Below are positions 15,789 through 46,835 of a stretch of DNA of 55,973 bases, one piece after another (the first letter of the stretch is position 1; every line of letters begins with the position of its first letter). The notes beneath the pieces are model-generated. The model worked only from the letters and a program-made list of their open reading frames with translations, was not told the origin of the DNA and made no database searches. A program made the translations under genes and the position numbers. The stretch is from Promethearchaeia archaeon (GTDB lineage Archaea > Asgardarchaeota > Lokiarchaeia > Sigyniarchaeales > SOKP01), in assembly GCA_046483985.1 (NCBI GenBank), contig JAWOCD010000033.1:1-55973 (forward strand), in the 5' to 3' direction.

Positions 15789-16040
15789 TTGAACTACCAC
15801 ACCATAAATGGCGTGGATTTGTAATCCATCGAGGATTGCTGACATAACATTAGTCTGACATCCTCTTCAAACGCATTCACCGTGGTTCCTACGGCAGAAT
15901 CATTATGAGTAAGGAGTTTGATAGTATTTTCTTCTAATTGGTTTTTCCCTTCTTTTTTGATTTCTTTAATAATCGTCTTTATAAAATAAGGAATAATGAT
16001 CAATAGTTCATCCCATAAACTCCTTTAGACTTAACTTAGG
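15789..16040 (-). mobile_element. Non-autonomous IS200/IS605-type mini-element A with TnpB omega-RNA-like scaffold
   Basis: Minus strand: TTTC|14 nt-AAAG...GGGATGAA (degenerate left end), TTTATAAA box, GCCGTAGGAACCACGGTGAATGCGTTTG scaffold, right-end hairpin CCACGCCA-ttta-TGGTGTGG-tagt-TCAA; translates to the TnpB-tail-like SAVGTTVNAFEEDVRL..QSSMDYKSTPFMVW. Confidence 0.75.
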
Positions 16041-16095: not shown

Positions 16096-16665
16096 TTATT
16101 TCTTTTTTCGAGGTGATTTACCACATTTGGGACAAACAGTAGTATCTGCGGAGATGATCCATCCACAATTGGCGCATTTCCTTAGATTTGAGGACGCTTC
16201 CTCTTTTGCTTGTTCTTCGGCTGTTTCTTCTTGCTGAAGTGCTTCATATTCTGGTAGAAGATAATGCTTTGTGTAAAGTGGGTATTCATTTATTTGGTAT
16301 TTAAAGAGTTGACGAAATGCCTGCATATCGTCTAACGCTCTTTTAACCTCATAATTGCTGACATCATAATTCTTCTCTTTTTCAAATACCTTCTCCACAT
16401 ATTTGGCTAATTTCTTGGATTTGTCCTGCTTTTTAATCTTTTTAGCAATCCCTTTGGCCTTTTTTTCTTTTTCTTGATAAACCCATAGATCTTTTTCAAT
16501 ATTATCGAAAACAAATAATACACCCAAGTAATCTTCTTTAGAAATCATAGTTTCAAACTTTCTGAAGTTAGGGATGAATTCTTGGACTGAAACGCCGGCT
16601 ACATTGGAAAGATAATAGGCCTCAATATTAAAGCCGCAAATATCTTCATATTTTTGTAATACCAT
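16096..16665 (-). CDS. Hypothetical protein with C-terminal zinc ribbon
   Basis: CANCGW...CPKCG at the C-terminus; 189 aa ORF with typical codon usage. Confidence 0.7.
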   Translation of the reverse strand: MVLQKYEDICGFNIEAYYLSNVAGVSVQEFIPNFRKFETMISKEDYLGVLFVFDNIEKDLWVYQEKEKKAKGIAKKIKKQDKSKKLAKYVEKVFEKEKNYDVSNYEVKRALDDMQAFRQLFKYQINEYPLYTKHYLLPEYEALQQEETAEEQAKEEASSNLRKCANCGWIISADTTVCPKCGKSPRKKK

Positions 16666-16865
16666 ATATAATTTTCACAGAGATTAAATAATTCTATAAG
16701 CTTAATTAGCTACTTTTTTATTTAATTTTTAAGGAAAAAAAAAGTAGTATAAGGTTAATAGCTGATATACATCTAGACAAACTTGGACATAATTTAAATC
16801 TCTTTATTATCTGTATGACTTCGGGGTATATTAACCGCCGATCTTTTTCAATTTTCATGTATTCC

Positions 16866-17120
16866 ATAGTGGGTTTTGGCCAGATAGCAGCGAATGTGGT
16901 TTTACTGGCAGATGCAAGCCCATGTGGAGAACCGGCAAACGATCGAGGGTTACCGTGTAACCGCGGGCAGCATATGCATAAGTCGTCGGTGCACGCCATG
17001 TGCCGTTTACCGCGATCGTCAGTCAGCGATCCTTTGAAGATTTGTGGGGTTGTCCCGATATGTCCAGATTTTTTCTGACTGTTTCAGTGCAGAAGAATCC
17101 ACATGACTCTTCTCTACTAT
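16866..17120 (+). ncRNA. Unidentified GC-rich structured RNA candidate
   Basis: About 50% GC in an AT-rich intergenic region; nested stems including 5'/3' end pairing; TATA-like TATATTAA about 35-40 nt upstream; T-run downstream; strand not certain. Confidence 0.5.
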
Positions 17121-17143
17121 TCAATAGAATTTTTGAGATCAGA

Positions 17144-17255
17144 TTGAACTACCACGCCTAGAGAGCGAGCAATTCGTAATTCATCGCACACTGCTCATCT
17201 AAGTGCACGAGTCTTACAGATTCACCGTACTCCCCACTGCAGAATAATTATGAAT
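17144..17255 (-). ncRNA. Orphan TnpB omega-RNA-like scaffold B (IS200/IS605 right end) in the alba 3' region
   Basis: Homologous to elements A and C (TAAGACTCGTGCACTTAG, GCGATGAATTACGAAT, ...GTGGTAGTTCAA); begins 3 nt after the alba stop; no left end seen. Confidence 0.72.
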
Positions 17256-17258
17256 AAA

Positions 17259-17543
17259 TTATTTTTCAGGTGGACTTAAGACAATCTCCATGCTTGAAAC
17301 ATTGTTTTTTCGACCATTTTCTCCCTCAAGTCGTTCCGTGTCAATCTTAATTTCTTTATATTCTGTACCTTTGAGAAACCGATTTCTTAGAATTTCGCAA
17401 ACATCCACAGCGTGGGAAATTGCTCTGCCGCGTGCCTTGACAGTACAATCCTCTCCTTTGTTTAGAACCATCATTCCGGCCATAACATAATTCATAGTTG
17501 GTCTGCGACCGACATAGACAGTATTCTCATTTTTATTTGCCAT
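17259..17543 (-). CDS. albA: DNA/RNA-binding protein Alba
   Basis: NTVYVGRRPTMNYVMA, VKARGRAISHAVDV, NVSSMEIVL. Confidence 0.95.
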   Translation of the reverse strand: MANKNENTVYVGRRPTMNYVMAGMMVLNKGEDCTVKARGRAISHAVDVCEILRNRFLKGTEYKEIKIDTERLEGENGRKNNVSSMEIVLSPPEK

Positions 17544-19990: not shown

Positions 19991-20214
19991 TTGAACTAAC
20001 ACGGCCTAAGGAGCGGTGGATTCGTAATTCATCGCAAATCCCTCGCCTAAGTGCACGAGTCTTATAGATGCTCCAAACGCTAACCCCGCAGCCCTTGCGG
20101 TTACACGATGAACTCGGTTATCGTCCATCACTATTTTTATAGTATTAATCGTTTATAAATGTATGTGCGAATCATCCCCGCCTTGAAGAAGGGGGGCATT
20201 CTCACACTCTAGTG
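19991..20214 (-). mobile_element. Complete 224-bp non-autonomous IS200/IS605 (IS608-like) mini-element C carrying an omega-RNA
   Basis: Minus strand: target TTAC (20215-20218)|left end with hairpin CCCCCCTT-cttc-AAGGCGGGG; TTTATAAA; 5' hairpin GATGGAC..GTTCATC; ACCGCAAGGGCTGCGG..GCGTTTGGAG scaffold; right end GAAT...TCAA. Confidence 0.8.
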
Positions 20215-41921: not shown

Positions 41922-42758
41922 TCATTGGAGAAAATCGATAATATGCTGATTAACCTCAGGAGCCTTTTCTCGTGGAGATTCGTGCCCCGCATTCTCAATA
42001 ACGATTAACTTACTGTTTGGTATTTGCTTATGGATCATTTCATTCATTATTTTTGGGGTCTGTCGATCTTTTTCCGCCGTTAAAATAAGCACTTCACTCT
42101 TAATGTTAGGTAGATCGTCGTAAACATCATACGTTCCTAAGGCATGTGCTTGATTTTTGATATCTTGCGGTCTTGAAGGATTTTTTGCACTGATTTCGAT
42201 TAAATCCTCAGCAGAGAATAATCCATAGAATTTTTTACTGGGATTTTTTTCCATTTTTTTTCGGAATTTACGGGTAAACCCCATTTTTGCCCCCGCAAAA
42301 AACGCCGCCTTGGGATCTTTCTGCTTTTCCTGATATTTATCAATTTGTGATTTTTCATACATCTTCAGTCCTTGATCATCTCCCGGCCATTTTGGTAAGG
42401 TATTTATCAGTACCACCTTCTTAACACGTTCAGGATACAGTAAAACGAACGATTGAACAATCATACCGCCTAAAGACCAGCCTAAAATATGAGCCTTATC
42501 TATTTCTAAATGGTTCATTAATGCCGCAATATCGTCTGCAAACATTTCCATTTTATATGGTTCATCTGGGCGGTCCGACTTCCCTGCGCCTCGATTATCG
42601 AATTTTATCACTTTAAAATGTTCCGCTAATACATCAAATTGAGCTATCCACACTTCTTTATCCGCGCCGAATCCATGAACTAAGATAAGGGGCTTTCCTT
42701 CGCCCTTTACTTCATAGCATACTTTTATTCCATTTATTTCAGCAAACCGTTCTGTCAT
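41922..42758 (-). CDS. Alpha/beta hydrolase
   Basis: HGFG, FDNRGAGKS, GWSLGG nucleophile, AGH. Confidence 0.92.
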   Translation of the reverse strand: MTERFAEINGIKVCYEVKGEGKPLILVHGFGADKEVWIAQFDVLAEHFKVIKFDNRGAGKSDRPDEPYKMEMFADDIAALMNHLEIDKAHILGWSLGGMIVQSFVLLYPERVKKVVLINTLPKWPGDDQGLKMYEKSQIDKYQEKQKDPKAAFFAGAKMGFTRKFRKKMEKNPSKKFYGLFSAEDLIEISAKNPSRPQDIKNQAHALGTYDVYDDLPNIKSEVLILTAEKDRQTPKIMNEMIHKQIPNSKLIVIENAGHESPREKAPEVNQHIIDFLQ

Positions 42759-44164: not shown

Positions 44165-44215
44165 TTTAGCTTTAAATTTAAATTATTATGTTAGAAAGCT
44201 GAGGTTTCAAAATTA

Positions 44216-44412
44216 ATGGTAAACCTTATTTATGTGGTTATTGGCATCGCCTTGACAATTCAGACTTCCTTTTGTTTTAAATATTGCCAGTGTTTTGCAA
44301 AAGAAGGGGGTTATACAAGGATTACCTGAGTTTAAATTCGAAGGGATAAAAGACTTTATAAATATTTTTAAAGAGTTTTTCCAAAATAAATCATAGATAA
44401 CAGGATTCATTC
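44216..44412 (+). pseudogene. Truncated copy of the DMT-family gene at 45837
   Basis: Close match to the 5' end of 45837..46835 including its upstream sequence; TGG>TAG stop at 44394; homology ends near 44412. Confidence 0.85.
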
Positions 44413-44525
44413 GTAAACATTTCCATTTCCTATGGTTCATCTGAACGGTCTGACTTACCCGATCCTCTATTATCAAATCTTACTAAAAAGTTAATTTTTA
44501 AATTGGAAAGCAAAAATAGAACCTA

Positions 44526-45779: not shown

Positions 45780-45836
45780 TTTAGCACAAAACTTAATTTA
45801 TTATTATAGTTTTAGTTTTTAGAGGTTTCAAAATTA

Positions 45837-46835
45837 ATGGTAGATATTATTAATGTCATCATTGGGATTACATTGACAATTTTAACCTCATTTTGTTTTA
45901 ATATTGCCGTTGTCTTGCAAAAGAAAGGACTTATGCAAGGATTACCAGAATTTAAATTCGAGGGGATCGGCGATTTTATTGATATTTTTAAAGAATTTTT
46001 CCAAAATAAGTCGTGGATTACGGGATTCATTCTAAGTCTGTTGGGATGGATCCCCTATATGATTGCTCAATCTCTAATAGGGGTCTTGATTGTATCACCC
46101 ATCATGAGTATTGGACTCATTTTTCTGGTTTTATTCGCTAAGCGAATATTGGATGAAGATGTTAAGATTAAAGAAGGTCTCGCCATGGGCTTATTGATTA
46201 TATCGCCGATATTAATTACATTATCCAATATATCGGAAGTAAAGATTAACTTAATCGAATTTATAACCCCTTTTCTTATATTTCTTTTGATAATCACAAG
46301 CATATCTGTATTTTTTTATATGTACGGAGAATCTAGAGAGGATAAATCCTTGGAAGGTTTATTCTTATTGTTAATCGCCAGTGCTTTATTTTCTCTAGGG
46401 GCTATTTTTACTAATATATTTGTCCAAGCGTTTGCAGATGCGAGTACAGATTTATCACTTCTTACATTCTTTGAAATCTTTTTTGGAATCTTTTGGTTTA
46501 TTTTTGAAGGCTCATACGCCCACCTTTGGATTTTTATTGGAATTTATGGAGTGGGTTTGAGTAACTTTGTGGGATTATTATTTCAACAAAATGCACTCCA
46601 AAAGGGAAAAGCTGTTATAATGTGGCCAATCCAGAATGGTATTACCATCATCGTTCCCGTCATTGTGGGATTTTATGTATTTCAACAGTCTGTTAATAAT
46701 GTACCGATTTTTATAGTGGCTCTCATTTTGATACTGGTTGCGGTATCATTCTTAAGTAAATTTCAAGCAGAGGTAGAAAAAATAGAAGGACCCCAAGATG
46801 TAGAAGAATTAATGGAAAATAATCAAGGGGATTAA
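45837..46835 (+). CDS. DMT/EamA-like (NIPA-like) membrane transporter
   Basis: AVVLQKKG, WITGF, QNALQKGKAVIMWP; about 9-10 TMs. Confidence 0.7.
   Translation: MVDIINVIIGITLTILTSFCFNIAVVLQKKGLMQGLPEFKFEGIGDFIDIFKEFFQNKSWITGFILSLLGWIPYMIAQSLIGVLIVSPIMSIGLIFLVLFAKRILDEDVKIKEGLAMGLLIISPILITLSNISEVKINLIEFITPFLIFLLIITSISVFFYMYGESREDKSLEGLFLLLIASALFSLGAIFTNIFVQAFADASTDLSLLTFFEIFFGIFWFIFEGSYAHLWIFIGIYGVGLSNFVGLLFQQNALQKGKAVIMWPIQNGITIIVPVIVGFYVFQQSVNNVPIFIVALILILVAVSFLSKFQAEVEKIEGPQDVEELMENNQGD

Follow-up and report, generated by a model that had tools for sequence, protein, structure and literature searches.

The stretch at positions ~16747 to 17082 (plus strand) of the window, by which the whole analysed DNA of 55,973 nucleotides is meant, is very probably a decayed, internally deleted and non-autonomous copy of an IS607-family transposon carrying an omega/reRNA scaffold. 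The intact form of its parent consists of a serine-recombinase gene (tnpA), a gene for a large TnpB-like RNA-guided nuclease and a guide RNA at the right end. The window element belongs to the IS607 family with TnpB reRNA, and the GC-rich "structured RNA" candidate proposed at this place is an ordinary representative of a known sort of element rather than a novel RNase P-like RNA. The copy has kept both transposon ends, the first tnpA codons behind a TATA-like box, ~75 nt of tnpB coding sequence and a ~135-nt right-end RNA scaffold, within which a stem-loop and a pseudoknot between its loop and the 3′-end still look intact. The features are the following.

16747..17082, plus strand: whole gene-less IS607-like element, ~336 bp (own-genome repeat mapping; both ends align with those of the intact L021 element)
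16747..16857, plus strand: left end (8 genome copies; alignment A3, which includes the left end of the intact element of genome G015)
16783-16790, plus strand: motif TTGGACAT within the left end, the inverse of the right-end motif
16827-16834, plus strand: TATA-like box, ~24 nt before the old tnpA start
16858..16872, plus strand: first codons left of tnpA (MYSI...), with which the MerR-type HTH of an IS607 serine recombinase opens (same start on contig C71)
16873..16948, plus strand: what is left of the tnpB coding sequence, from RuvC-II to the bridge (...WFYWQ...EGY...); GC-rich core of the candidate (DNA homology with a decayed tnpB at C16:36512-36952)
16948..16962, plus strand: private deletion junction (alignment of short and long copies)
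16949..17082, plus strand: right end, predicted omega/reRNA scaffold of the TnpB guide RNA (18-22 copies sharing one sharp 3′ boundary)
17014..17031, plus strand: conserved stem-loop of GATCG, an 8-nt loop and CGATC (both partners change in 4 of 5 pairs; 94.9% of cells pair in 20 sequences)
17060-17068, plus strand: motif ATGTCCAGA within the right end, likely transposase site
17075..17081, plus strand: 3′ strand of the pseudoknot, CTGACTG, pairing with loop positions 17020-17026 (CAGTCAG) and lying directly before the boundary between scaffold and flank (both partners change in 5 of 7 pairs; 92.9% of cells pair)
17083..17102, plus strand: flank, the would-be guide if an RNA is made (similarity between copies ends at ~17082; its 14-20-mers occur once in the genome)
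17144..17257, minus strand: neighbouring repeat of family c, an IS200/IS605-type right end finishing in TAGTTCAA (at least 45 copies, sharp end at 17144)

The finding that the candidate region is multi-copy and not single-copy came from a search of its own genome (4.06 Mb in 128 contigs, 97% complete), in which three separate repeat families, termed a, b and c, were recognized in and beside it. Family a represents the left end (window ~16747-16821, extending up to 16869 in some copies) and has about 8 copies, and family b represents the right end (16957-17082) with 18-22 copies; multiple copies with shared and defined ends are in keeping with an IS607 element. The copies of family b diverge at one point, right after a CTGAC.GT word, and throughout the genome the similarity of right ends stops sharply at this position, window ~17082. 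Since a and b are paired elsewhere as short units (385 bp on C101, 380 bp on C114, 345 bp on C60, and 100 bp on C53), the unit in the window is taken to be ~16747-17082. The internal content is different in each of these short units, which bear many mismatches as they decay; they are independent deletions, not derivatives of one amplified master copy. The original prediction had placed the end of its unit at TTCAA (17120-17124), a word that lies in the flank, and had assigned it a 19-nt spacer shared with the oppositely oriented "omega-RNA B"; with the true right boundary at ~17082, the spacer to that repeat of family c, which starts at 17144, measures 61 nt. A GT dinucleotide is present at both junctions of the window element (16747-48 and 17081-82), as read from few junctions and with a left boundary that is uncertain by a few bases, and likewise at both junctions of L021. 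GT may be the crossover dinucleotide, as far as these few junctions can indicate.

The right end was analysed by means of an alignment (A2) of 20 sequences from 9 genomes, comprising 11 right ends from the own genome and 9 from 8 other genomes. Many loci returned by a 13-mer motif scan of the taxonomic family were chance matches, and hairpin-bearing loci alone were used. The hairpin stem, formed by pairing of 17014-17018 with 17027-17031, depends in its sequence on the lineage, e.g., GATCG/CGATC versus GACCT/AGGTC, while at least 6 different complementary combinations of loop and end account for the pseudoknot. Taken together, 93.7% of the cells of hairpin and pseudoknot are paired in A2 as compared to 78.6% in shuffles. 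Both partners change in 9 of the 12 pairs, and none of 500 shuffles does as well; controls in which the helices were slid are 22-39% paired. When only the own copies were supplied, RNAalifold picked the helix between loop and end unprompted. In the window copy, the hairpin and the 7-bp pseudoknot are both perfect, whereas many other copies contain mismatches. IS607 elements recombine double-stranded DNA, and a covarying long-range pairing therefore points to an RNA. In the right-end RNAs of TnpB systems, a pseudoknot connects the apical loop of stem-loop 1 with the nucleotides flanking the guide, and functional tests on the IS607 reRNA have shown that ISXfa1 requires it to be active (PMC10711439). 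The position of the pseudoknot in the window matches this description of the IS607 and ISDra2 reRNAs (PMC10711439). The occurrence of a covarying pseudoknot in the position known from the literature identifies the 3′ ~135 nt of the candidate, on comparative sequence grounds, as the omega/reRNA scaffold of an IS607-type TnpB element. Its placement conforms to this assignment: the scaffold lies at or downstream of the tnpB 3′-end, finishes at the right end of the transposon, and is followed by variable flank, in which positions 17083 to ~17102 would take the role of the guide. The best right-end copy, C16:36402-36531, is 92% identical to that of the window and is located directly 3′ of a broken tnpB, and the same right-end architecture is common to intact elements of other genera. 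Two further hairpins seen in the own family, GATCCTC/GAGGATC and TCGGG/CCCGA, are absent from the relatives and show no clear compensation among the decaying own copies; they are not claimed here. The cross-genus covariation of hairpin and pseudoknot can seed a covariance model for such right ends, and with them for the ~800-aa TnpB proteins described below, in Promethearchaeota.

At the left end, the copies of family a run into an ATG from which MYSIG.AAQLLG..K.LRR is read, the MerR-type HTH with which IS607 serine recombinases begin. Of a serine-recombinase tnpA with an N-terminal MerR-like HTH, the window retains only the start; the paralogous remnant on C71 (48 aa, 62.5% identical to the TnpA of G015, E 3e-13) and the G015 TnpA itself supply the rest of the evidence for such a gene. 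The TATA-like box lies at a constant distance from the tnpA ATG in all left-end copies and was probably the old tnpA promoter. Transcription from it might still cross the ~225 nt that remain and give a scaffold-plus-guide RNA with its guide at 17083-~17102. A matching TnpA supplied in trans might recognize the ends and mobilize the element, and a matching TnpB might make use of the RNA. An inverted common word is found at both ends, ..TGGACA. on the left and the right-end motif listed above, and would probably have served as the site of the recombinase (transposase). The left end of the remnant lies ~80 nt upstream of the start codon of a 189-aa protein (16096-16665, minus strand), just past the likely promoter of that gene; the middle of the protein is rich in lysine and glutamate, and a zinc ribbon at its C-terminus matches PF13248/PF13240 below cut-off.

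Between the two ends, the identity of the tnpB remnant is given mainly by DNA homology with C16 (FLARW..MWF...IEGY region), whereas a tblastn comparison of the TnpB from genome G113 with the window yielded a weak match (E 0.01 in a search space of 701 nt). The decayed tnpB on C16 still displays RuvC-II, the Zn ribbon and RuvC-III (DADLNA..NI), is interrupted by two in-frame stop codons and matches PF07282; a tnpB gene with RuvC and Zn ribbon is thus represented by the window remnant, the C16 copy and the intact gene of L021. About 150 nt present in C16 and C114, encoding the Zn ribbon and RuvC-III, are absent from the window copy, and this private deletion has created the GGTTAC/GTAACC hairpin at 16948 that had been counted among the stems of the presumed RNA. 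The 5′ half of the candidate consists of the transposon left end and of tnpA and tnpB coding remnants and is not an RNA scaffold. Of the fallback offered by the original prediction, a long omega-RNA of a second family, only the 3′ ~135 nt have held up, as an IS607-type scaffold distinct from the IS605-type family c. The 11-nt string common to the window stretch and to the reader's element C (GTGTAACCGC, present in many copies of family c) spans the private deletion junction in its window version and is read as a coincidence.

The parentage of the element is illustrated by L021, a complete IS607 element in G015, a genome of Promethearchaeota that belongs to the same family. Its TnpA (202 aa) contains PF00239 and PF00376 and scores 168.7 bits against NF033518 (IS607 family transposase; cut-off 110), and its TnpB-like protein (798 aa) contains PF07282 (E 4e-17), the C-terminal ~170-270 residues matching TnpB and Cas12f models and PDB chains. 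The left end of L021 aligns with window 16745-16875, including the TATA-like box and the tnpA ATG, and its right end aligns with that of the window. Relatives of the C16 tnpB fragment, embedded in open frames of 640-870 aa, came to light in 11 of 120 further genomes from the same family. Such open frames of the IS607-lineage TnpB, 640-870 aa in length, occur at loci L011-L019, and genes for ~800-aa proteins, twice the normal size of a TnpB, at L021:2735-5131 (minus strand) and L020:4220-6613 (plus strand). The first ~520 residues of the ~800-aa TnpB gave no match in Pfam, NCBIfam or PDB sequences, and its RuvC-I reads D-L-G, as in TnpB, and not DPG as in Fanzor.

No intact tnpA or tnpB of the subfamily itself was recovered from the own assembly, where tblastn with the remnants and with the proteins of the relatives led to the wrecks on C16 and C71 only. 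An autonomous parent of the subfamily was found neither in the own genome nor in 134 other genomes of the family nor in metagenome contigs. Queried with the 80-aa fragment from C16, a protein database returned nothing among longer proteins; right-end words yielded 0 matches in one metagenome scan and 3 chance matches in another, and a DNA search in 40 relatives produced one short match. The other PF07282 (TnpB-type) matches in the genome are at most 27-43% identical to the TnpBs of the relatives, over 51-91 residues.

Known systems resemble the window element to different degrees. IS607-family elements with TnpB and reRNA, exemplified by ISXfa1 (Yoon et al., NAR 2023, PMC10711439), have a serine-recombinase TnpA with a MerR-type HTH ahead of tnpB, as does the parent of the window copy; they share with the window element a guide-RNA scaffold that fills the right end and continues into the flank, a pseudoknot in which an apical loop pairs with guide-adjacent nucleotides and, as far as the few junctions can be read, a matching dinucleotide at either junction, which here looks like GT whereas IS607 has been described with GG. 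In contrast to ISXfa1, the window copy lacks both genes, and the TnpB of the parent lineage in Promethearchaeota is, at ~800 aa, double the usual size. Serine-recombinase-associated branches of TnpB, archaeal ones included, have already been catalogued (PMC10691335). PATEs are gene-less derivatives of IS200/IS605 that "often encode omega-RNAs" used in trans (Meers et al. 2023, PMC10055086). Like the window element, they are protein-less mini-elements that retain both ends and a guide-RNA scaffold and rely on proteins provided in trans. PATEs originate, however, from Y1-transposase elements, whereas the window element is an IS607 derivative (serine recombinase, recombination of double-stranded DNA), and deletions that occurred independently, rather than the amplification of one master copy, gave rise to its short relatives. 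Archaeal RNase P RNA (RF00373) resembles the stretch in length (~260-320 nt) and in a G+C content above that of the surrounding DNA, but the stretch has no match to this model (E<=10), is repeated and derives from a transposon.

According to the original prediction, the stretch could be an unidentified structured RNA, perhaps a divergent RNase P/MRP-like RNA. A cellular RNA gene of this or another housekeeping type, running on the plus strand from the TATA-like box to the T-run, would account for several features that are indeed there: 129 of the 260 bases in 16861-17120 are G+C in a genome of 35.2%, the TATA-like box and the downstream T-run are present, and all listed complementary strings were found where they had been reported. 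The expectation of a stable fold fails, however, against chance. The MFE z-scores of -1.39 (plus strand) and -1.15 (minus strand) are no better than random, and the region contains one perfect inverted 8-mer versus 0.54 in shuffles (30% of which reach 1) and four perfect inverted 7-mers versus 1.9 (a count attained by 18% of shuffles). Since the stretch is patched together from one end of a transposon, scraps of coding sequence and a repeat reaching only to 17082, the P1-like stems that had been proposed join the element to non-homologous flank, as is the case for both outer closing helices (16866/17113 and 16921/17098), which are at chance level; ACGATCG/CGATCGT, in turn, represents two copies of one palindrome and competes with the conserved hairpin 17014-17031. 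Rfam searches of both strands revealed no RNase P, SRP, HEARO (IscB omega-RNA) or other family; the whole window returned nothing at gathering thresholds, 16600-17350 returned two chance matches at E<=10 (a snoRNA of 16.7 bits and an lncRNA fragment), and a tRNA scan returned none. A canonical archaeal RNase P RNA is encoded elsewhere, at C85:53542-53865 (minus strand; 141 bits versus a cut-off of 84), as is an SRP RNA at C45:35248-35516 (plus strand). A housekeeping RNA gene in this place is accordingly exceedingly improbable, and the false lead of a new RNase P/MRP-like RNA beside alba is removed. The SRP RNA on C45 reaches 80 bits along the entire model, under the Rfam gathering score of 96.5, and is thus somewhat divergent. 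Just as little probability attaches to the view that one of the overlapping small open reading frames is a real protein-coding gene. Frames of 87 aa (plus strand) and 93 aa (minus strand) are both open, but neither matches Pfam, the 87-aa frame is a chimera of the tnpA start, an out-of-frame scrap of tnpB and right-end sequence, and 1-nt indels in paralogous copies break both.

Of a different nature is the question whether the remnant is alive as a stand-alone guide-RNA gene, in which the old tnpA promoter would drive a scaffold-plus-guide RNA used in trans by a TnpB encoded elsewhere, be it for homing of the mini-element or in a function exapted by the host. Such a scheme finds encouragement in the conserved spacing between TATA-like box and tnpA ATG in all left-end copies, in the perfect pairing of hairpin and pseudoknot in this copy, which is mismatched in many others, and in the literature discussion of PATE-type elements whose omega-RNAs are used in trans (PMC10055086). 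The cognate intact genes are, however, absent from an assembly that is 97% complete and contains only the wrecks on C16 and C71, and the remaining PF07282 proteins of the genome are as distant as described above. Moreover, the internal deletion differs in each short copy, which indicates decay and not a selected design, the 5′ part of the scaffold abuts the private deletion junction, and six T residues in a row at 17069-17074, within the scaffold, could terminate archaeal transcription ahead of the guide. A live guide-RNA cassette therefore seems unlikely. The more specific proposal that transcription from the TATA-like box at 16827-16834 produces an RNA of ~225-250 nt, which a distant or unassembled ~800-aa Asgard TnpB would employ in trans, is distinctly unlikely; if true, IS607 mini-elements would constitute dispersed guide cassettes in Promethearchaeota. 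Since intact tnpA and tnpB of its family are missing from the assembly, the window copy is most likely inert debris of an IS607-family transposon. As such, it adds, for an Asgard archaeon, an annotated example to the gene-less IS607 derivatives that retain a TnpB guide-RNA scaffold.

The high G+C content that had drawn attention to this stretch is due to coding scraps and scaffold, not to a cellular structural RNA. GC-rich islands in the AT-rich intergenic DNA of Asgard archaea can, as a lesson for annotation, be mere transposon wreckage. Coding scraps and right end (window 16858-17082 and C16:36402-36952) have a G+C content of 48-52% in a genome of 35%, while the intact elements related to them in other genera appear as AT-rich as their hosts. 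The GC-rich subfamily could be a recent arrival from a GC-richer donor, but no such donor was found.

The neighbouring family c is unrelated to the IS607 remnant next door. It corresponds to the omega-RNAs A, B and C of the original prediction and occurs in the window, in addition to the copy at 17144-17257 (minus strand), at 15789-15910 and 19991-20119. All of its near-full copies, of which the genome contains at least 45, finish in the same sharp end, ..GGTAGTTCAA. In the own genome, the 1.5 kb around full-length copies contain no tnpB or TnpB Zn-ribbon match, and only the last ~35 nt of the family recur beside tnpB genes (C18:104586, C24:23624 and C85:14727). Family c looks like an abundant gene-less, PATE-like family of the IS200/IS605 type. 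The window further contains direct repeats, 44172-44412 with 45793-46032 and 42540-42607 with 44415-44482, which are 73-82% identical at a spacing of ~1.62-1.9 kb and suggest tandem paralogous genes.
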